From positions 3,418 to 67,417 of the forward strand of contig CAYXTS010000001.1 of assembly GCA_964468665.1 (NCBI GenBank): 64,000 bases of DNA, given 5' to 3'. Position numbers and translations under genes: made by a program. Below the pieces are notes generated by a model. The model did no database searches. It had not been told where the DNA came from and saw nothing but the letters and a program-made list of their open reading frames with translations. Shown piece by piece: positions 2,624-43,153 of the stretch. The stretch's first letter is position 1; each line of letters starts with the position of its first letter. This DNA is from an uncultured Candidatus Saccharibacteria bacterium (GTDB lineage Bacteria > Patescibacteriota > Saccharimonadia > Saccharimonadales > Saccharimonadaceae).

Positions 2624-4633
<2,010 letters not shown>

Positions 4634-33554: not shown

Positions 33555-33616
33555 CTAAATAAAAAATCGTTATTTACGATTTTAATAATTTAATGAACAG
33601 AGAGTGTCAGCGTTAG

Positions 33617-33654
33617 CTGGCACTCTTGACATGGGAGTGCTAGTTTTATATAAT
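33617..33654 (+). promoter_or_regulatory. CIRCE (HrcA operator) overlapping the clpC sigma70 promoter
   Basis: CTGGCACTC-N9-GAGTGCTAG against consensus TTAGCACTC-N9-GAGTGCTAA; TTGACA 33626 and TATAAT 33649 with 17-nt spacer. Confidence 0.8.
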
Positions 33655-33663
33655 GGTCTTATA

Positions 33664-33749
33664 TGAACGGGTGGCGCCTGGAGGGGGACCCCAAAAATGT
33701 TTTACAAAGTAAAAATTTTGGGGGAGGAAAAGGCGACAGGACCCGTTCA
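33664..33749 (+). mobile_element. family-B palindromic element in the clpC 5' UTR
   Basis: Nested inverted repeats tgaacgggt/acccgttca, cgcct/aggcg, ccccaaaa/ttttgggg, ttttac/gtaaaa; homologous to 42000-42087. Confidence 0.75.
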
Positions 33750-33762
33750 GAGAGAGGATTAT

Positions 33763-36231
33763 ATGCAAGCAGAATTTAGTGAAATTATGAACCACTTGTC
33801 GGAAAATGCACGATTTGCCCTGCAGAAAGCCGATTTTTATAGTAAAAGATATAATAACGGATATATGGGGACGGAGCATTTGCTGCTCGGGATTATGTCA
33901 ATGGATAATTCTACTGGTGCAAAGATGATCCGTGAAGAGGGCGCTACGATGGAAGAAATGGAGAAGGCGCTTAATAAAGTAGCGGTAGAGGTGCCCGGTT
34001 CAGACATGGCAATGATGTCTTTGTCGGAGGCAGTGATTTTGACACTGCGGATGGCGCAAAATTATGTGAAAGAGCAGGGTTTAACGGTGATTGGGACAGA
34101 ACATATATTATATGCACTTTTGTCGCAACCAAATTCTAGAGCGTCTTTGATTTTGCAGGGGTTAAAAGTAGATAGTGAAAAGATTTTGGATGAAATTGAA
34201 GCTTTGGTAGAGGAACAAACTAAAGACGAAAGAATCAAAGCCGAAAGAGCTAAATATCTCAAAAAAACACCACTTAAATTTTTGAATCGTTATGGGAAAG
34301 ATTTGACCGAGGAGGCGAGAGTGGGGAAATTAGATGCGGTAATTGGACGTGAAAATGAGATTGAACGAGTGGTGACAGTATTATCAAGAAGGACGAAGTC
34401 TAATCCAGTACTCATTGGTGAGGCCGGTGTGGGTAAAACAGCAATTGTGGAAGGTCTTGCTACGAGGATTTCCAAAAATGAGGTGCCGGGTAATTTGATT
34501 GGCAAGCATATCTATCAAGTAGATTTGTCGTCGGTGGTAGCGGGGACAAAATTCAGAGGTGAGTTTGAAGAAAGAATTAAGGGGATTATTGACGAAGCGA
34601 CGGGAGATGATTCGATTTTGCTTTTTATTGATGAGATTCATTTGCTTTGTGGGGCGGGTTCTTCTGAAGGTTCGATGGACGCAGCAAATATTTTAAAACC
34701 AGCACTAGCACGAAACACGATTAATTTGATTGGCGCGACGACTTTAGATGAATATCGGAAAACGATTGAAAAGGACAAGGCGCTTTCTAGAAGATTTCAG
34801 ACCGTAATGGTAGAAGAGCCTTCGGCGGTAGTGACGCTCCGGATTTTGAAGGGGATTAAAAGTCACTATGAAAAACATCATGGCGTAGTGATTCCGGATA
34901 CGATTTTGGAAACTGCTATCACGATGAGTCAGCGTTATATCAACGATCGTTTTATGCCGGATAAAGTGATTGATATTATTGATGAAGCTTCAGCGATTGC
35001 AAAGGTGGCGGCAGATAAAAAGGGTGGTGGTAAATACAAGAAGTTGAAGATTGAAAAATCTACATTAGAAAATAAAATTACCGAAGCGGCTGAGAAAGAG
35101 GATTATGAAAAGGCGGCTAACTACAAAACAGAATTAGCGAAGTTAGAACAAGAAATTAAAAAATTAGAAAAAGCGGGCGTGAAGAAAACTGAAAATCCTA
35201 AGCTCACTGAAGAAAATTTGGCTACAGCGGTGTCTCTTAAAACTGGTATTCCAGTATCTAAAGTGCATGGGAGCGAAATGAAGATGTTGATGGGGCTCGA
35301 AGATCATATCAAAGAATCAATTATCGGACAGGATGAAGCGGTAAAAGCGGTAGCGAAAGCGATTCGTCGGGGCCGGTCGGGAATTACGGATTCAAAACGA
35401 CCAATTGGTTCTTTCCTTTTTATGGGTCCAACTGGTGTAGGCAAAACTGAGTTGGCACGAGTAATTGCACGAGAAGTGTTTGGGGGTGAAAATGCTTTGG
35501 TGAAAATTGACATGTCGGAATTCGGCGAAAAGCATAATGTATCGCGACTAGTGGGTGCGCCGGCGGGATATATTGGCTATGATGATGGCGGGAAATTAAC
35601 TGAGGCAGTACGACGTAAGCCTTATTCGGTAATTTTGTTTGATGAAATTGAAAAGGCGCATCCGGATGTATTTAATTTGCTTTTGCAGATTTTGGAGGAC
35701 GGAGTGTTGACGGATGGGCAAGGTAATAAAATTAAATTTAATAATACAATTGTGATTTTGACATCAAACCTAGGTTCGGCGGATATGTATAGAGAGGGCG
35801 AACTTGGTTTTACCGCAAAAACTGTTAAAGATAAGAAAGCGCTTGAGGAAGAATATGAAGAAAATAAGTCCTATGCGATGAAGGCGCTCAAAAAAGTGAT
35901 GCGTCCAGAACTAATTAATCGTTTGGATAATATATTAGTATTTCATGCTTTGACGAAAAAAGATGTAGAAAAGATTTTTGATAATTTGATTGATGACCTC
36001 AAGAAACGTTTAGCAGCGAAAGGCATCGGTATTAAGATTGATGACAAAGCAAAAGAATATTTAATTCGTGAGGGTTATGATCCGAAAAATGGAGCAAGGC
36101 CTCTTAGACGTAAGATTGAAGACGAAGTAGAGTCGCTGCTTTCGGAGGAGATTATTTCGGAGAATTTGAAAAAAGGTGATATTCCGGTTTTGAAATATGT
36201 TAATAAGAAATTAAAGTTAGTAAAGGAGTAA
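33763..36231 (+). CDS. clpC: ClpC/ClpB-family AAA+ chaperone
   Basis: Clp-N repeats (GTEHLLLG), [39 protein letters not shown]. Start set at ATG 33763 after GAGAGG. Confidence 0.95.
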
Positions 36232-36233
36232 AA

Positions 36234-36818
36234 ATGGCTAAAAATTATTTAGTACCGACAGTGGTAGAAGAAACTAATAAAGGTGAGAGAGCTTACGATA
36301 TTTATTCAAGGCTTCTCAATGATAGGATTGTGTTTTTGGGTGAGGATGTGAATCCTCATACAGCTAATTTGGTGATTGCGCAGTTACTATATCTTGCACA
36401 TGAGGATAATAAAAAACCGATTAAATTATATATTAATTCACCAGGCGGGTCAGTTTATGATGGGCTGGCAATCATTGATACGAAGAATTATATTTAGCCG
36501 GATGTGTAGACGATTTGGTTTGGCCTGCAGTCTTAGATGGGGGCGATGTTACTTAGCTCTGGTGCGAAGGGCAAGAGGTATTGTCTCCCAAATGCGCGGA
36601 TTATGATTCATCAGCCGTCATCTGGTACGGAAGGCAAAATTACCGACCAGGAGATTATGTTGCGTGAGGGTGTGTTTTTGAAAAAGCGTCTTGCAGAGAT
36701 TTTTGCCAAAAATACGGGCAAAGATTTGAAACAAGTGGAAAAAGATATGGATCGGGATAATTGGATGAGTGCAGAAGAAGCTTTGAAATATGGAATTATC
36801 GATAAAATAATAAAATAA
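36234..36818 (+). pseudogene. clpP: ClpP protease subunit with three in-frame TAG codons (likely local sequence error)
   Basis: [14 protein letters not shown] and MIHQP..G in one frame. TAG at 36495, 36507 and 36534; the last is at the catalytic Ser position. Confidence 0.85.
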
Positions 36819-37010
36819 ATCATAACATTAAGATTTAAAAACATAATGTTAAGTTTTTGAAACATAACATTATGTTTTTTGAATGGAATTTTTAGCTAAC
36901 AGGGGTGAAATTTATGAAAAAAATGCTTGCGTTTATTCAAAAAAAATGATAGGATGGACTTGTGTAAAGGTCAAACACAATATAAAAACAATAATTAAAA
37001 TAAAAACAAA

Positions 37011-40000
37011 ATGTCTCCACACTATAAAACAAATATTATTTTTGTGCATAAAGCAATCGTTAGTTTACTGATTGCCTTTGTTGCAAGCTTTATTATCAAC
37101 GAAAATTCTGTTTTGGCTTATTCTTCTTCTATTACTACTTCGGGATTGGTGCAAGTAGATGTGTCTTCTACTGGTAATGGCGCCAGTGTGGGAACTGATG
37201 ACGTGATGGTAAATTCTACTTGTCCTTTGGGTTATACTTTGACCATTGAGGGTCCGAGCGATAGTAATTTGTATAAGGGTGGTGACGACACAAGTAATTA
37301 TAGTATTGCTTCTTCTGCTGGTACCTCTGATAACCCACTTCCTATTATTGGTGATGACGGACAGGGGTATAGTTATATGAATACTTGGGGTTATACTACG
37401 GAGTCTGGAGCTACTTTTAAGTCGAATTTTATTGGCTTAACTAATACAGCTACTACCCTTGCCACCAAATCATCCGCTTCTGCTAGCGGTGGTGATACCG
37501 TATCGGTTCACTATGGCGTATCGGCAGATAAATCGTTGGAGGTTGGATTATACACTATGGCGAATAGTGGAGCAGTGACTTACTATCTTGTTCAGAATCC
37601 TAGTTGCTCTACGATTGATGTGGTATATGATGGGAATGATGCTTCGGATGGGTCTATGGGTACTTTGTCTCATAGTAATGTAGCGGAGAATAGTAGTTTA
37701 GACTTATATCCGTCAAACTATTCGCGGGATGGTTATGGTTTTGCTGGGTGGTCTACTGAGCAGATAGATCCAGATGCAAATAATGCTGCTACACTTATTA
37801 GTACCGCTGCAGCTAATGGTAATATCTATGGTCCAATGGCTACCATTACTGCAGATGCTAATTTCTTAAGTCATGCTACAGTATCAGGTAATAATCTAGT
37901 CGTAACATTATATGCCGTTTGGGTAAAGCCAGTTGATAATGCTACTTTGCAGGATTTTATTTGCCCAGATAATACTGTTATGCCAGTTGGATCGGTGATT
38001 GCTCTAAAAGATCAGCGTGACAGCAATGCCTATGCTGTAGCCAAACTAGCTGATGGTAATTGTTGGATGATAGAGAACTTACGTTTAGATAATACCAATA
38101 GCGATAATTCTACGGGTGCACTGGCACAAGGCTATCATGGTGATACTATATTCGACCCAGAACTCGGTGGTATCTTTGCTGGCCTAGCTGACCCAGAATT
38201 CGATACTTTTTCTGACACCGCTATGGCAAACAGCCTATATTATAGCGGCACTCCATCTGGTACAGCTAGCATTAATATTGGTACAGACCATCCAGGTTAC
38301 CGTATGCCTCGTTATAACAATGAGAATACTTCGTCTAGAGCTTCTAGCCCAACAGACGATAATGGTGCTATGTATAGCTACGGTAATTACTACACTTGGG
38401 CGGCAGCTATAGCTAATACTTTTGGTTACAGTAATACTTTTCCAACAGATGATAACGGAAACACTAGTGAAACTGCAGGTACTTCCATTTGTCCTAAAGG
38501 CTGGAAGTTGCCATATGGTAAGGATACCGATAATGGAGCAACAAAGGGAGGTTTTTATTATCTTGGTTCTCAAATGGGGGCAACAGCAAGTAGTGAGGCG
38601 AGCTCTAAAATTTGGCGGAGCTACCCTAACAACTTCCTTTACTCCGGCTATTATTATGGTTCGTCTGCCAGTTCTAGAGGTTCTAGGTATAGTTATGGAA
38701 TGCATAGCGGCGATGGCTACTATTGGACATCTACCGTATATAGTATTGCAGGCTCGTATTCGCTGCTCATAAATGATTCGGGTGTTGCACCGGGTACTGG
38801 TAGGCCAATTAAAACCAATGGGAACAGCATTAGGTGCCTCGCTATCACAGACTACACTGTTCACTTTGACGCCAATGGTGGTAGTGGCACTATGAGCGAC
38901 CAAACTATTAATGTAAATACAGCTACTGCTCTTACTTCCAATGCCTTTACTGCGCCTGCAAACAGTGTATTTGCTGGTTGGAACACAGCAGCTGATGGCG
39001 GTGGTACTAGCTATACGAATGGACAATCTGTCACAGATATTACTACACCAGGAAAAACCATTACGCTTTATGCTCAGTGGGAGCCTGTAGGTTATAATGT
39101 GAAAGTTAATTTTGCAGGTAATGGCGTGAGTAATGTAAGGTTTACGGCAAGTGGATATACGACTAGGGTTGTGTCTACGAGTGGTGGCACTGCTAATTTG
39201 GTAGCAGGGGTGCAATATACTGTTACAATGAATTTTGTTAATGCCAATAATTATGAATTTGATAGTTGGGCATTAAATAGCAGTAGCTATGGGACTTTGT
39301 CTTCGACATCTGTAAATCCGACTTATTTTACGCCAAATGCTAATAGTGGGAGTGCGATAATCACGGCTACTGGGAAAGTGAAAGTGGTTTATATGCAGGA
39401 TTTGACGCTTGCAAGTTGCCAGAAAAATGTAGGGTCGAATGGTATAGGTGATGAATTTACTGTATATGATAAACGAGATGACAAGGATTACACCGTGCGC
39501 TATATCAATGGTTCTTGTTGGATGACGCAAAACTTGCGGTTTACAGAAACATCTTTGAATCTTGAAACTTCTAACGTTGGTGTTAATAAAACTATTTCTT
39601 ATGGTGATTTGACTTCTGGTGATAGCAATGTGGTAGCTAGAATTCATGAATCGGGCGATGATACGATTGGTGTTTGGTATAATTACGCGGCAGCTTCGGC
39701 TATGTATATTGCTACGAATTCTAATAGTAACTATTCTAGCTATGACATTTGTCCGAAGAATTGGCATTTGCCGACTGGGCCTAATACTACCGCAGACACT
39801 GACCTTAATATGTTAATAGGTAATACAATTTCCGATTTCCAGGATTTAACTGCAGGATTAGATAGTTTTGTGGATATTAATGGTGGTATTTATAGTGGTG
39901 GTACGTTAGGAAGTTCTAGCCTTGGTGGTTGGTGGTCTGGTACGGCTGGAAGTACGACTACACGTTACGCATTGATTTATGATGGTACAAATAGAATTCC

Positions 40001-40094
40001 AATGGGGGATCATTATGTGGGTGGTTTGATTAGTGGGGATGAAACAGAGTCTAGAGGAAGTGGTATGTTTGTGCGATGCGTGCGCAGTTCATAA
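37011..40094 (+). CDS. large secreted/surface protein paralogous to 12007-16035 (two FISUMP-like domains, InlB-B-type repeat)
   Basis: Same N-terminal module, DGNCWMIENL, CPKGWKLP, NSIRC, HFDANGGSG, GSCWMTQNL, FVRC. Confidence 0.8.
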   Translation: MSPHYKTNIIFVHKAIVSLLIAFVASFIINENSVLAYSSSITTSGLVQVDVSSTGNGASVGTDDVMVNSTCPLGYTLTIEGPSDSNLYKGGDDTSNYSIASSAGTSDNPLPIIGDDGQGYSYMNTWGYTTESGATFKSNFIGLTNTATTLATKSSASASGGDTVSVHYGVSADKSLEVGLYTMANSGAVTYYLVQNPSCSTIDVVYDGNDASDGSMGTLSHSNVAENSSLDLYPSNYSRDGYGFAGWSTEQIDPDANNAATLISTAAANGNIYGPMATITADANFLSHATVSGNNLVVTLYAVWVKPVDNATLQDFICPDNTVMPVGSVIALKDQRDSNAYAVAKLADGNCWMIENLRLDNTNSDNSTGALAQGYHGDTIFDPELGGIFAGLADPEFDTFSDTAMANSLYYSGTPSGTASINIGTDHPGYRMPRYNNENTSSRASSPTDDNGAMYSYGNYYTWAAAIANTFGYSNTFPTDDNGNTSETAGTSICPKGWKLPYGKDTDNGATKGGFYYLGSQMGATASSEASSKIWRSYPNNFLYSGYYYGSSASSRGSRYSYGMHSGDGYYWTSTVYSIAGSYSLLINDSGVAPGTGRPIKTNGNSIRCLAITDYTVHFDANGGSGTMSDQTINVNTATALTSNAFTAPANSVFAGWNTAADGGGTSYTNGQSVTDITTPGKTITLYAQWEPVGYNVKVNFAGNGVSNVRFTASGYTTRVVSTSGGTANLVAGVQYTVTMNFVNANNYEFDSWALNSSSYGTLSSTSVNPTYFTPNANSGSAIITATGKVKVVYMQDLTLASCQKNVGSNGIGDEFTVYDKRDDKDYTVRYINGSCWMTQNLRFTETSLNLETSNVGVNKTISYGDLTSGDSNVVARIHESGDDTIGVWYNYAAASAMYIATNSNSNYSSYDICPKNWHLPTGPNTTADTDLNMLIGNTISDFQDLTAGLDSFVDINGGIYSGGTLGSSSLGGWWSGTAGSTTTRYALIYDGTNRIPMGDHYVGGLISGDETESRGSGMFVRCVRSS

Positions 40095-40115
40095 TAGTTG
40101 TGATATAATTTGAAT

Positions 40116-40544
40116 ATGAAAATATTGTGGACTGATGGGAGTGCAAGTCCGAATCCGGGGCCAGGAGGGTTTGCAGTGATTGAGGTTGATGACGATAATG
40201 CTCGTCCGGTAGTTTTGGGACGTGAAAAGAACACTACTAATATCAGGATGGAAGGTTCAGCGATGATTGCGGCGATTAAATATGCTGGGGATGAAGGTTG
40301 CGAAATCCATTCGGATTCGGAATTTTGGATTAATGTTCTGACAAAGTGGGCTGATGGTTGGGCAGCGAATGGTTGGAAGAAAAAGACCGGTGCGATTAAA
40401 AATTTAGACTTAGTGAAAGAATTATATGAATTATATAATAAATTTTCGGTGAAGTTGGTTTGGGAAAAGGGGCATGACGGGATAGAGTTCAATGAAATGG
40501 CAGATGAGTGGGCTAATAAAGCCAGACAAGGCAAAGAGTTGTGA
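40116..40544 (+). CDS. rnhA: ribonuclease HI
   Basis: TDGSASPNPGPGG, TNIRME, SDS, NLDL, W.KGH, NEMAD. Confidence 0.94.
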   Translation: MKILWTDGSASPNPGPGGFAVIEVDDDNARPVVLGREKNTTNIRMEGSAMIAAIKYAGDEGCEIHSDSEFWINVLTKWADGWAANGWKKKTGAIKNLDLVKELYELYNKFSVKLVWEKGHDGIEFNEMADEWANKARQGKEL

Positions 40545-40556
40545 TATAATTATCTC

Positions 40557-41894
40557 ATGAAACTATCAGAGGAACTTATTTATCGTGGCTTTATGGCCGA
40601 AACAACTATTGAAAATCCTGTGGATTTGGATACGAGAGAATCGAAAAAGTTCTATTGGGGAGCGGATCCGTCGGCAGATTCTTTGACAATTGGAAATTTG
40701 GCGGCCATTATGATGTGCGCGTGTTTTGTACGCCATGGGTATCAACCGTATCTGTTGGTAGGCGGAGCGACGGGACAAATTGGAGATCCGAAAGAAAATG
40801 GCGAAAGAGAATTGAAATCTCTAGACGAAGTAGAGCATAATAAACAATGTATCAAAAGGCAAGTTGAAAAGGTGATTAGTAATGCTACTTCTCGACTCGC
40901 GCCTGCGCGCCCGTCGTTACGGGGCTCCGGCGCTCATTTCGTTCCCGTTGTCGCGGACGGTCTCGAAGTAGCATTGCCTAATCACCTCAACGTGACTATG
41001 GTTGATAATTATGACTGGTTCAAGGATATGAAGTATTTGGATTTTTTGCGCGAAGTGGGGAAGGCGTTTTCGATGACGCAGCTCTTAGATAGGCAGTTTG
41101 TGCAGAATCGGATTGGTGAAGGTGGTTCGGGGATTTCTTATGCAGAGTTTTCGTATACTTTGATCCAGGGTTATGATTTCCTACATCTTTATCGTGAATA
41201 TGGCGTGGATTTGCAGCTTTGTGGAGCGGATCAATATGGTAATTGTACTTCGGGGATTCATTTGATTAGAAGATTAGAGGATGGAGTGGCGGATGTGTGG
41301 TCTACGCCGTTAGTGATAGATCCGGTGACGGGACGAAAATTCGGTAAGTCTGAAGGGAATGCGATTTGGCTGGCAGTTTCGGATAATGGCAGCGGAAACT
41401 ATACTTCGATTTTCGATTTTTATCAATTTTGGTTGAATCAGTCGGATGAAGCAGTAGAATATTTGATAAAGATTTATACGCTTTATGATAAGGAAACAAT
41501 TGAGGATATTTTGAAGCAACATTTAGAAGCGCCGGAAAAACGGATTGCGCAGCGAGCTTTGGCGCGGGGAGTGACGGAAGTTGTGCATGGTAAGGAGGCG
41601 GCAGAGGCGGTAGAGAATTTGACAGAAATATTGTTTAGTCGCGAAACGAATTTTGCGGAGTTTAGCGAGGATGAGATTTTGGAATTTGCGAAATATTTGC
41701 CGACAGAAAAAAAGGGCGTGATGTTGGTGGATGCTTTGGTGAATAATGGTTTGGCTGAATCAAAAAAGAAAGCACGGGAATTTATTGCGCAAGGGGCGAT
41801 TACGATTAATGGTGAAAAGATTAAAGACGATATCGAACTTAATCAAACAGCGATTATTAAAAAGGGTAAAAATAAGTTTTTGATTGTAAAATGA
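40557..41894 (+). CDS. tyrS: tyrosine--tRNA ligase with palindromic-element insertion
   Basis: GADPSADSLTIGN (HIGH-like), IQGYDF, GADQYGN, KFGKS, C-terminal S4-like domain. Confidence 0.96.
   Translation: MKLSEELIYRGFMAETTIENPVDLDTRESKKFYWGADPSADSLTIGNLAAIMMCACFVRHGYQPYLLVGGATGQIGDPKENGERELKSLDEVEHNKQCIKRQVEKVISNATSRLAPARPSLRGSGAHFVPVVADGLEVALPNHLNVTMVDNYDWFKDMKYLDFLREVGKAFSMTQLLDRQFVQNRIGEGGSGISYAEFSYTLIQGYDFLHLYREYGVDLQLCGADQYGNCTSGIHLIRRLEDGVADVWSTPLVIDPVTGRKFGKSEGNAIWLAVSDNGSGNYTSIFDFYQFWLNQSDEAVEYLIKIYTLYDKETIEDILKQHLEAPEKRIAQRALARGVTEVVHGKEAAEAVENLTEILFSRETNFAEFSEDEILEFAKYLPTEKKGVMLVDALVNNGLAESKKKAREFIAQGAITINGEKIKDDIELNQTAIIKKGKNKFLIVK
40870..40987 (+). mobile_element. family-A palindromic element, in frame in tyrS
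   Basis: Arms aggtgattag/ctaatcacct and aatgctacttc/gaagtagcatt; core cccgtcgttacggg. Confidence 0.75.
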
Positions 41895-43153
41895 AATATT
41901 TAGCAGTTCTAGGTAGACAACCGGAAATATCTATTGCAGAACTTGAAGCTATTTATGGTGGGGTTGAGCGAGTTTCGGATGTCTTAGTGTATTTTACATT
42001 GACGGGTGACGACTCTGGAAGGGGACCCCAAAATGTTTTGCGAAGCAAAAATTTTGGGGAGGGAGAAGAGTCGGCAGGACCCGTCGAGAGTATAAATAGA
42101 CTGGGTGGAGTTTTGAAACTCGCTGTGGTATTGGATCAGAAGCCATTAGAATATTTGCAAAATTTGTCAGATGGGAAGATTACGATTGGGGTGAGTGATT
42201 ATTCTGAAAAGGCGTCGAGGAAAAGTGCACAACAAGAAGCGTTGAAACTTAAGAAGATTCTAGTGAGGCATGGACGCTCAGTGCGCGTGGTTGAAAATAA
42301 AGATGCTACGCTATCGACGGCCACTTCTTTACATAATGGTTTGTCGGGGAAAAACGAGAGAAAAGTAGAACTAATTAAAGTTGACGATGATTGGTATAGG
42401 GTGATTGGTGTGCAAGATATTGATTTTTATGCGAAGCGTGATCAGGCTAGACCGGCGCGTGATGCTAGGGTAGGCATGCTTCCGCCGAAGCTGGCGCAGA
42501 TATTGATTAATTTATGTGGCCCACTTAAGTCTGGTTCTGTCGTTTTAGATCCATTTTGTGGAACTGGTGTAGTGCTTCAAGAAGCGTTGTTGATGGGCTA
42601 TCGTGTCTATGGAACGGATATTAGTGATAGGATGGTGGAGTATAGTAGGAAAAATCTTAATTGGCTAGTGAGAGATAAAAATAGTCATTTTGAGGGGGTC
42701 CGGAGCCTGGCAAGGCGAGGAGTAGCGCCAGCCGCCCGTGGCGACGGGCCGGCTGGACGCGCCCCGAAAAATGTTCTATTTTATCTCTCTGCTGGCGATG
42801 CAATTTCTTATACTTGGCAACAGCCTATCGATGCGGTGGCGTGTGAGGGATATCTTGGGAAACCATTCCCTAGAATCCCGACGGAAATGGAATTAAAAGA
42901 ACAGAAACAGGAATGCGGGGCGATTGTGAGAGGATTTCTAAAGAATTTGGCGGAACAGATTAAGTCTGGTACGCCGGTGGTGATAGCAGCGCCGGCGTGG
43001 CTGAGGGAAAATGGTGAGTATGAGAGGTTAGATATGCTTGACGATATTCCTGATATGGGGTATAATGTTAATAATAAAACGCAAGAGGGGCTTCTTTACC
43101 ATCGCGATGGTCAGGTTGTTGCGAGAGATATATTAATTTTAAGGAAAAAGTAA
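41891..43153 (+). CDS. class I SAM-dependent (probable RNA) methyltransferase carrying two palindromic inserts
   Basis: GMLPPKLAQILIN, VLDPFCGTG, GTDI, ACEGYLG. Confidence 0.8.
   Translation: MKYLAVLGRQPEISIAELEAIYGGVERVSDVLVYFTLTGDDSGRGPQNVLRSKNFGEGEESAGPVESINRLGGVLKLAVVLDQKPLEYLQNLSDGKITIGVSDYSEKASRKSAQQEALKLKKILVRHGRSVRVVENKDATLSTATSLHNGLSGKNERKVELIKVDDDWYRVIGVQDIDFYAKRDQARPARDARVGMLPPKLAQILINLCGPLKSGSVVLDPFCGTGVVLQEALLMGYRVYGTDISDRMVEYSRKNLNWLVRDKNSHFEGVRSLARRGVAPAARGDGPAGRAPKNVLFYLSAGDAISYTWQQPIDAVACEGYLGKPFPRIPTEMELKEQKQECGAIVRGFLKNLAEQIKSGTPVVIAAPAWLRENGEYERLDMLDDIPDMGYNVNNKTQEGLLYHRDGQVVARDILILRKK
42000..42087 (+). mobile_element. family-B palindromic element, in frame in the methyltransferase
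   Basis: Nested inverted repeats gacgggt/acccgtc, cgactct/agagtcg, ccccaaaa/ttttgggg, ttttgc-gaa-gcaaaa. Confidence 0.75.
42670..42789 (-). mobile_element. family-A palindromic element, reverse orientation, in frame in the methyltransferase
   Basis: Arms gagagataaaa/ttttatctctc and cattttgagggg/ccccgaaaaatg; reverse-complement core cccgtcgccacggg. Confidence 0.75.

Follow-up and report, generated by a model that had tools for sequence, protein, structure and literature searches.

A family of palindromic, probably selfish DNA hairpins inside and between the genes of Candidatus Nanosyncoccus

The stretch of DNA analysed here (64,000 nucleotides, hereafter the window) belongs to a metagenome-assembled genome (MAG) of a Candidatus Saccharibacteria bacterium from the ruminant gut with the genus label Candidatus Nanosyncoccus (bin G000, 816 kb in 60 contigs). 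It carries two copies of a long imperfect palindrome, which we call family B: copy A in front of clpC, and copy B inside a methyltransferase gene. Our data favour, with a probability of about 0.78, the reading that family B is a selfish, non-autonomous DNA palindrome whose copies multiply inside Candidatus Nanosyncoccus genomes and spread from one genome to another. An earlier note on this DNA had proposed a second mobile structured palindromic family from the two copies alone, and this proposal is borne out: there are further copies, their stems covary, and the two sites are not both ancestral and vertically conserved.

Copies A and B align at 86% identity and share a nested layout of three stems, P1 to P3, with copy A following the plan of copy B in other letters in P2 and P3 (Table 1). 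Direct reading confirms the two loops that the earlier note had listed as shared, TGGA(G/A)GGGGA and CAGGACCCG; the compensatory stem pairs that it had pointed out (ttttac/gtaaaa versus ttttgc/gcaaaa, and cgcct/aggcg versus cgactct/agagtcg) are likewise real, readable in the sequence and accompanied by covariation in the family. A search of all 60 contigs of G000 with BLAST and iterated nhmmer yielded 24 copies, 22 of which were used to build a covariance model, R1. The genome holds 27 R1 matches plus one copy cut by a contig end, that is, 27-28 copies. The element is 75-100 nt long and forms one long imperfect hairpin per copy (-35 to -60 kcal/mol), and, folded one by one, all copies of G000 adopt the same three-stem rod. 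Invariant throughout are the GGGT/ACCC foot of P1, the GA that faces GGCAGG, and the purine-rich loop. At least three unrelated, interchangeable types of P3 occur, with loops that are near-invariant within each type; the GCGAAGC loop to which attention had been drawn is indeed present in copy B, but is one of several apical variants and is not conserved.

How secure are these stems? For the covariation statistics, 112 R1 matches (105 distinct) from six genomes and metagenome-assembled loci were realigned to R1. Across the 105 distinct copies, 94.5% of the P1/P2 cells are paired, compared with 71.9% in column shuffles, and 374 cells carry double changes, compared with 100. The covariation score of 0.574 (0.157 in shuffles) was reached by none of 500 shuffles, and slid controls scored 0.03-0.10. 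P1 is 96.3% paired, with two-sided changes in 5 of its 9 pairs, while two-sided changes occur in all 7 pairs of P2, with up to four standard pair types per position. An alignment fitted to R1 is biased toward pairing, but the size of the effect and the per-copy folds still make the stems secure. The genome-wide covariance-model search that had been suggested as a check thus came out in favour of the family. Differences among closely related copies are almost all paired changes, and orthologous copies in the genes of isoleucyl- and arginyl-tRNA synthetase (IleRS and ArgRS) differ by compensatory substitutions and even by compensatory one-base indels. The data are compatible alike with three ways of keeping the hairpin: selection on competent master copies, selection on resident copies, or repair of one arm from the other once the hairpin is extruded. 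At the gathering threshold, Rfam finds only tRNAs in the window and no family for the element, and with permissive settings the best matches of copy B (E 0.3-2) are to unrelated long non-coding RNA models.

The distribution of the element is patchy. Of the 24 other species of the genus, 13 lack any match, 1-3 copies occur in six and 11-15 in five, and a scan of the order (401 genomes, with up to 10 candidates scored per genome) gave only weak, sporadic matches in other families, in 17 of the 401. Family B is absent from most methyltransferase orthologues in 57 species (for example in G004); other orthologues carry it at no fewer than six different positions of the same N-terminal loop, in both orientations. 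The IleRS site is empty (...EFD-IDG-EHF...) in about 17 of the 24 congeners examined and filled in G000, G017 and G006, and the loops of a penicillin-binding-protein (PBP)-like protein, TypA and Tgt also allow a clean comparison with empty sites. Together, the patchy distribution and the mostly empty orthologous sites indicate that the element is mobile. In the four metagenomes that contain the genome, no strain-level empty site was found for the methyltransferase or ArgRS copies, and only the clpC leader gave element-free junctions, which come from related organisms. The spread is recent, as copies at unrelated loci show by being 97-100% identical; copy B, for instance, matches at 98.8% a copy on contig C31, at the 3' end of tdk. 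At one locus of another genome (L103, G012:C18), two 100% identical 86-nt copies lie 430 bp apart (3987-4072 and 4417-4502), one just upstream of priA and the other within priA, antisense and in frame.

The IleRS locus also bears on two alternatives. Its copies in G000 and G017 are 95% identical in genes whose identity is 72% overall and 46% at third codon positions, in keeping with recent spread. Several species without the element are more closely related to G000 than the other carriers, and the carriers do not form a clade. A host-beneficial DNA site, serving a nucleoid, replication or repair protein and kept in place by selection, would account for such identity between species with saturated flanking synonymous sites, for the compensatory substitutions and indels through which orthologous copies keep the hairpin, and for an orientation that follows the replication strand, as in some chromosome-organising motifs. 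We nevertheless judge it quite improbable: about half of the sampled congeners have no copies, which makes the element dispensable, the copies sit in arbitrary loops of unrelated proteins, and repeated acquisition fits the scattered IleRS carriers better than long retention. Also unlikely is that, instead of transposition, DNA uptake together with homologous recombination or gene conversion, acting on insert-bearing alleles and between copies, accounts for most of the spread between genomes, with arm-to-arm repair yielding apparent covariation. In favour of this, the flanks shared by the IleRS carriers (AYV..H / R..AH[LV]) go with the insert and are missing from empty alleles, the interior between the same termini being different in G006; types of P2 and P3 are combined in mosaic fashion, near-identical copies differ almost only by paired changes, and G·T mismatches are as frequent as A·C. 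However, recombination has no way to place copies at new loci that lack homology, and copies that are 97-100% identical do occur at such loci; moreover, the high identity in IleRS ends at the element borders, and no recombination tract is visible there.

Some sites have a more complex content. At the IleRS site of G006, termini and flanks are the same as in the other carriers and the interior is different. In G000, a partial duplicate of the 5' end of the element (GACGGACGGGTT; C3:2205-2230) lies just upstream of the full IleRS copy, and at the same site in G006 a partial 5' end is followed by a complete copy; this combination of partial and full copies suggests repeated events at one site. 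Sites 1 and 3 in the ArgRS of G006 (L126) hold SRNP[H/Y]EDFEVSEPC[N/D]DRRERTRS, which resembles a different palindromic family (family A), where G000 has family B (C3:26978-28960), and site 2 holds family B in both genomes. Such shared insertion sites mean either that permissive loops are few or that elements replace one another. The methyltransferase N-terminal loop (window 41950-42090; loci L038-L094) is an insertion hotspot across the 57 species, with two or more other insert types (e.g. GVEWHQMSFSGRSS..., GSCQISSSISQKF...) and a shortened form, ELEMSDFCTDINRLGG, in other species.

About 70% of the copies lie inside long open reading frames (ORFs), in either orientation and always in frame and stop-free. 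Copy B lies in frame in the N-terminal loop of the methyltransferase, where it encodes the peptide TGDDSGRGPQNVLRSKNFGEGEESAGPV; the earlier note had the reading frame right, while its length of about 30 amino acids (aa) has to be corrected to about 28. The host genes encode ArgRS (three copies), IleRS, TypA/BipA, Tgt, Tdk, an ExoIII-family nuclease, a TlyA/FtsJ methyltransferase and a class-V aminotransferase (cysteine desulfurase-like), as well as, named by sequence reading only, YchF, oligoribonuclease, an RsuA-type pseudouridine synthase and QueA. The non-genic copies occupy true intergenic spacers, which they fill almost end to end. Alignment to the solved BipA and TGT structures places the 24-aa insert of TypA in a hairpin turn of domain II and that of Tgt in the loop preceding a barrel strand, both between secondary-structure elements. 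The predicted peptides are rich in Gly, Pro, Ser and Glu (e.g. NFGEGEE..GPV). On average, about 4.2 of the six frames of an element are open, compared with 3.1-3.3 in composition-matched shuffles, and the same holds for intergenic copies; openness therefore belongs to the element itself rather than to the survivors alone. Two length rules were rejected: that the genic core is a multiple of 3 is false (30, 6 and 19 copies leave a remainder of 0, 1 and 2, respectively), and the corresponding rule for core plus outer stem, that their summed length is a multiple of 3, does not hold consistently. Could the inserts be removed from expression, as introns or by ribosome bypass like mitochondrial 'byps' or T4 gene 60? 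Stable hairpins inside essential genes might invite this idea, but every intragenic copy preserves the frame and is free of stops, which would be needless if it were removed or bypassed, and we find the idea hardly credible.

Does the hairpin act as DNA or as RNA? We define the sense strand of the element as the one reading GGGTGAC...GGCAGGACCC. Relative to the host gene, 31 of 44 genic copies are sense and 13 antisense. Mismatches in P1 and P2 are equally often G·T (25) and A·C (22), which means that there is no RNA-type wobble tolerance on either strand. Orientation is uniform per contig (9/9 minus on C3, 3/3 minus on C4, 3/3 plus on C10), and the sense strand lies on the locally C-rich strand in 24 of 28 copies in G000 and in 26 of 33 in G006, G012, G015 and G017 (49 of 61 overall; 25 of 29 where the absolute skew is at least 0.1). 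At that skew, genes on the C-rich strand contain 10 sense and no antisense copies, whereas genes on the G-rich strand contain 8 antisense and 4 sense copies. Orientation follows GC skew, not gene direction, and the evidence points to a structure that acts at the DNA rather than the RNA level. The earlier note had left the choice between single-stranded DNA and RNA; the former is now the better supported, and an RNA role has not gained support. An orientation bias toward the lagging-strand template is the signature of single-stranded DNA transposition by the IS200/IS605 insertion sequences (IS; PMC5027513), but replication-related bias is also found in several other IS families (PMC3971601), so that the strand bias points to the replication fork and not to one enzyme.

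GC skew itself is extreme (about ±0.3) on most contigs of G000, among them C1, C8, C27 and C28, as opposed to C3 and C18, where about 91% of the coding sequence is on the minus strand and the skew is yet slightly positive. Either the genes of C3 and C18 lie on the lagging strand or a recent inversion has taken place. C3 is probably from the same organism as C1, since their read depths match.

The clpC copy shows what an insertion can do to a promoter region. Copy A is untranslated and lies between a promoter with a CIRCE-like repeat and the Shine-Dalgarno (SD) sequence of clpC, where it had been placed before; the Clp_N-type N-terminus starts at 33763, although the same ORF can be read without a stop as far back as 33667, within copy A. 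From the end of the promoter at 33654 it is 10 nt to the start of the hairpin, whose end lies 4 nt ahead of GAGAGAGGA and 13 nt ahead of the ATG. Four contigs of related organisms from the same metagenomes (X1-X4) skip 33655-33761 and have AGGGG or AGAGG instead (short sides of 23-29 nt). The clpC genes of these relatives, a comparison that the earlier note had recommended, read TATAAT-AGGGGT-ATG or TATAAT-AGAGGT-ATG, that is, TATAAT-N6-ATG, a leaderless-type junction. The element-free leaders identify copy A as an insertion that created a leader of about 100 nt with an SD sequence.

It is very unlikely that family B is a functional RNA, with the clpC copy as a riboregulator or thermometer in the 5' untranslated region and the other copies as RNA structures in their transcripts. 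In the predicted clpC transcript, copy A does occupy the 5' end, with a consensus promoter immediately before it, and its fold is stable (about -36 kcal/mol, z-score -4.5), with sense folds of the family often more stable than antisense ones. However, in this fold the SD sequence and the AUG remain unpaired with the element, outside the hairpin; in addition, 13 of the 44 copies in genes run antisense to their host, G·U shows no excess over A·C, Rfam has no matching family, and the clpC leaders of relatives lack the element. The earlier suggestion that copy A modulates clpC translation, for example as a thermosensor, is left unsupported by the same position of SD and AUG outside a very stable hairpin and by the relatives' element-free clpC. 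An RNA thermometer of the ROSE or fourU type was also rejected, as it needs the SD or AUG within a marginally stable hairpin, and copy A, at about -36 kcal/mol, excludes both. A 5' stem that stabilises the clpC mRNA is possible. The CIRCE-like repeat is flanked by TTAGCTG.../...CTAG (window 33613-33643); a CIRCE-type operator rather than CtsR would be unusual for clpC.

What, then, defines the inserted unit? Conservation extends beyond the core (CGGGT...ACCCG) into A-Y-A-T-S-G-R on the left and Y-C-S-A-G-A on the right, giving the termini CAT-SGR-CGGGTGAC...GGCAGGACCCG-YCS-AG. In the two identical priA copies, the shared sequence is exactly CATGGA-core-TCCAGA, and beyond it there is no direct repeat. 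Near-identical cores carry differing self-complementary outer triplets (GGA/TCC, CGA/TCG, GAG/CTC, AGG/CCT), and in the cleanest empty-site comparisons the net insert equals the core plus 3 or 4 nt (81 = 78+3; 78 = 74+4; 72 = 69+3). Locus-specific inverted repeats outside P1 are about twice as common as in controls (three same-locus controls and a swapped-flank control), and runs of 7 nt or more occur at 10 of 81 copies compared with 2-5 in the controls. Such flanking inverted repeats include ATATAAT...ATTATAT around copy A and a 13-nt repeat around the copy at G000:C10:10606. The outer repeats may stem from insertion into pre-existing small palindromes, from inverted duplication at insertion, or from repeated events at one site.

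Several points weigh against family B being a mobile selfish element. First of all, the searches for a mobilising enzyme yielded no candidate. Y1_Tnp/RAYT (PF01797) is absent from G000 and from five element-rich congeners, in a search that detected it in control genomes; its single match among 26 genomes lies in an element-free one. TnpB (zinc-ribbon family) is absent from all 26 genomes. Reverse transcriptase (RT) genes are missing from the element-rich G000 and G012 and present in the element-free G003 and G004. G000 has no IS-like multicopy ORF, and a pattern scan of IMG/VR returned three matches, none of which R1 confirmed. No target-site duplication exists at the junctions of identical copies, and the limits of the inserted unit can be given only approximately, as the net insert is core+3 or core+4 nt in the cleanest cases. 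As to replication, its direction was taken from local GC skew only, on a fragmented bin, and the copy-rich contig C3 has a weak, gene-discordant skew. Finally, the 95% identity of the IleRS copies could instead mean selection on a resident element.

The multicopy ORFs that G000 does have were rejected as IS elements; they encode RNase Y, type IV secretion system and pilus ATPases, DnaJ and the like on near-duplicate contigs. A solitary-end search of G000 for an autonomous long version gave only one internally deleted remnant, on C4 (about 37560-37600, minus strand), in which CATCGACGG is joined to CAGCCGGCAGGACCCGTCGAGAG. We regard an RNA intermediate, retroposed by an RT acting in trans, as highly improbable. 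RT genes are common in the genus (19 of 26 genomes, often two or more in one genome), and group II intron retrotransposition also prefers one replication strand; but the RT genes are distributed against the element, as described above, and the copies bear no strand-specific wobble signature.

The following mechanism would fit a selfish DNA element. The conserved asymmetric loops (GA/GCAGG; GGAGGGGGA/AGGAGAA) and the GGGT/ACCC foot are probably recognised by the mobilising machinery, while the stems would need only to pair and could drift by compensatory changes, with the apical hairpin exchangeable. Insertion most likely proceeds via single-stranded DNA at the replication fork. In these gene-dense genomes, copies would then survive only in intergenic spacers or as a stop-free, frame-preserving stretch of 24-28 aa, rich in Gly, Pro, Ser and Glu, in a surface loop, with predicted read-through. 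The clpC copy would be one such insertion, turning a promoter-ATG junction into a 100-nt leader that begins with a hairpin, and any effect on clpC would be incidental. As for the mover, it is a tentative and rather doubtful idea that a mechanism not yet described is at work, one that is strand-specific, recognises hairpins at the replication fork and operates without HUH/Y1, TnpB, DDE or RT enzymes; a host replication or repair enzyme, or a fold-back or template-switch reaction, might provide it. If true, this mechanism could explain the outer triplets, a net insert of core plus one arm (3-4 nt), and the outer inverted repeats.

Table 1. Features of the clpC promoter region and of the two family-B copies, in window coordinates
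Feature	Position	Strand	Remarks
CIRCE-like repeat GCACTC-N9-GAGTGC	33620-33640	+	Overlaps the -35 hexamer; direct reading
Consensus sigma-70 promoter TTGACA-17-TATAAT	33626..33654	+	12/12 matches; upstream of copy A
Copy A, R1 match	33659..33755	+	Hairpin 33664-33749; 76.6 bits, E 4e-16; fold -36.4 kcal/mol, family architecture
Copy A, P1	33664-33672/33741-33749	+	Direct reading
Copy A, P2	33675-33679/33731-33735	+	Direct reading
clpC coding sequence	33763..36231	+	Clp_N-type N-terminus starts at 33763, preceded by SD GAGAGAGGA
Copy B host gene, methyltransferase	41891..43153	+	420 aa; UPF0020/RMKL-like and N6_N4_Mtase matches
Copy B, R1 match	41994..42093	+	Hairpin 41999-42087; 94.1 bits, E 2e-20
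Copy B, P1 5' arm TTGACGGGT	41999..42007	+	Pairs with 42079-42087 (ACCCGTCGA); inner GGGT/ACCC fixed, outer 4-5 pairs vary and covary
Copy B, asymmetric loop	GA 42008-42009 opposite GCAGG 42074..42078	+	GCAGG within the near-invariant GGCAGGACCC block; columns invariant or >90% conserved
Copy B, P2 5' arm CGACTCT	42010..42016	+	Pairs with AGAGTCG 42067-42073; hypervariable stem
Copy B, purine-rich internal loop and P3	42017..42066	+	5' side GGAAGGGGA, 3' side AGGGAGA, conserved; encloses P3
Copy B, apical hairpin P3 CCCCAAAATGTTTTGC-GAA-GCAAAAATTTTGGGG	42026-42059	+	Loop GCGAAGC at 42040-42046

Two further observations concern the surroundings of the family. The methyltransferase that hosts copy B contains a second, unrelated palindromic insert, of family A (window 42693-42790), and many orthologues lack residues ~262-293; over this stretch, metagenome reads are 10-50 times as deep as over the flanks. 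Family A is also nested inside a family-B copy in queA (G000:C10:6270-6424). In the bin itself, three regions (C2:8-14 kb, C17:1.7-7.5 kb and C39:0.3-3.8 kb) are collinear, with an RNase Y-like ORF of 90-92% identity and its neighbours, and such near-duplicate contigs indicate that G000 is a mixture of closely related strains.

Finally, we would like to place family B among known repeats. In-frame palindromic elements are described for Rickettsia, the Rickettsia palindromic elements (RPE; PMC10969869, citing Ogata 2000, 2002), and as far as that description goes, family B resembles them in being a short palindromic repeat with many copies in a small, reduced genome, many unrelated housekeeping hosts and no known transposase, and in inserting in frame with the ORF left intact and an added peptide that is compatible with the protein fold. 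Set against the same description, family B differs in its host, a member of the Saccharibacteria and the candidate phyla radiation (CPR), in its length (75-100 nt versus about 100-150), and in the strong GC-skew orientation bias and the three-stem, two-loop architecture documented for it here. It comes from another phylum and has no Rfam match, so that it is likened to RPE-1 to RPE-10 by description, not by homology. With REP and REPIN sequences it shares imperfect hairpins, conserved unpaired bases, covarying stems, dozens of copies, a non-autonomous nature and the absence of target duplication; however, REPs are extragenic, with a GTAG-type tag and a genome-encoded RAYT, whereas family B is about 70% intragenic, is flanked by CAT...AG and has no Y1_Tnp. 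Hairpin dependence, lack of target duplication, a short conserved left junction and replication-strand orientation are also features of IS200/IS605 and its miniature derivatives (PMC5027513, PMC6006769), but these have separate subterminal hairpins and need TnpA, while family B is a single hairpin without TnpA or TnpB. Miniature transposable elements with inverted repeats (MITEs) such as Correia, RUP, Nezha and ERIC are likewise small non-autonomous repeats with inverted termini, some of them in ORFs and some altering the expression of neighbours; they differ in being accompanied by target-site duplications and by a parent IS that encodes a DDE transposase, neither of which was found for family B. 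The attC sites of integrons resemble family B in logic only: a folded single strand is recognised in a strand-specific manner through asymmetric extrahelical bases, with the stem sequence free to vary. Family B lacks the RYYYAAC/GTTRRRY core sites and cassette arrays of attC, and its copies are dispersed inside genes; intI was not searched for. The closest analogue in behaviour is thus the RPE, with additional traits of REPIN and IS200-like elements, although the enzymes expected of the latter two were not found.

Family B adds a new family to a known kind of element; for its phylum, our literature search found no paper linking Saccharibacteria or Patescibacteria with such elements. Protein-coding palindromes had been described as peculiar to Rickettsia; an ultrasmall epibiotic CPR bacterium now provides an independent case, in which one genome contains two or more families. 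Loops of aminoacyl-tRNA synthetases, translation GTPases and tRNA-modifying enzymes are reshaped by these elements, and family B accounts for breaks between contigs in these MAGs. Selfish DNA may be the source of much of the 'CPR-specific insertion' signal seen in conserved proteins, which bears on annotation, phylogenomics and structure prediction in these lineages. With more than 100 copies, clean empty sites and a strong strand bias, this tractable family could help to identify how RPE-like elements move.

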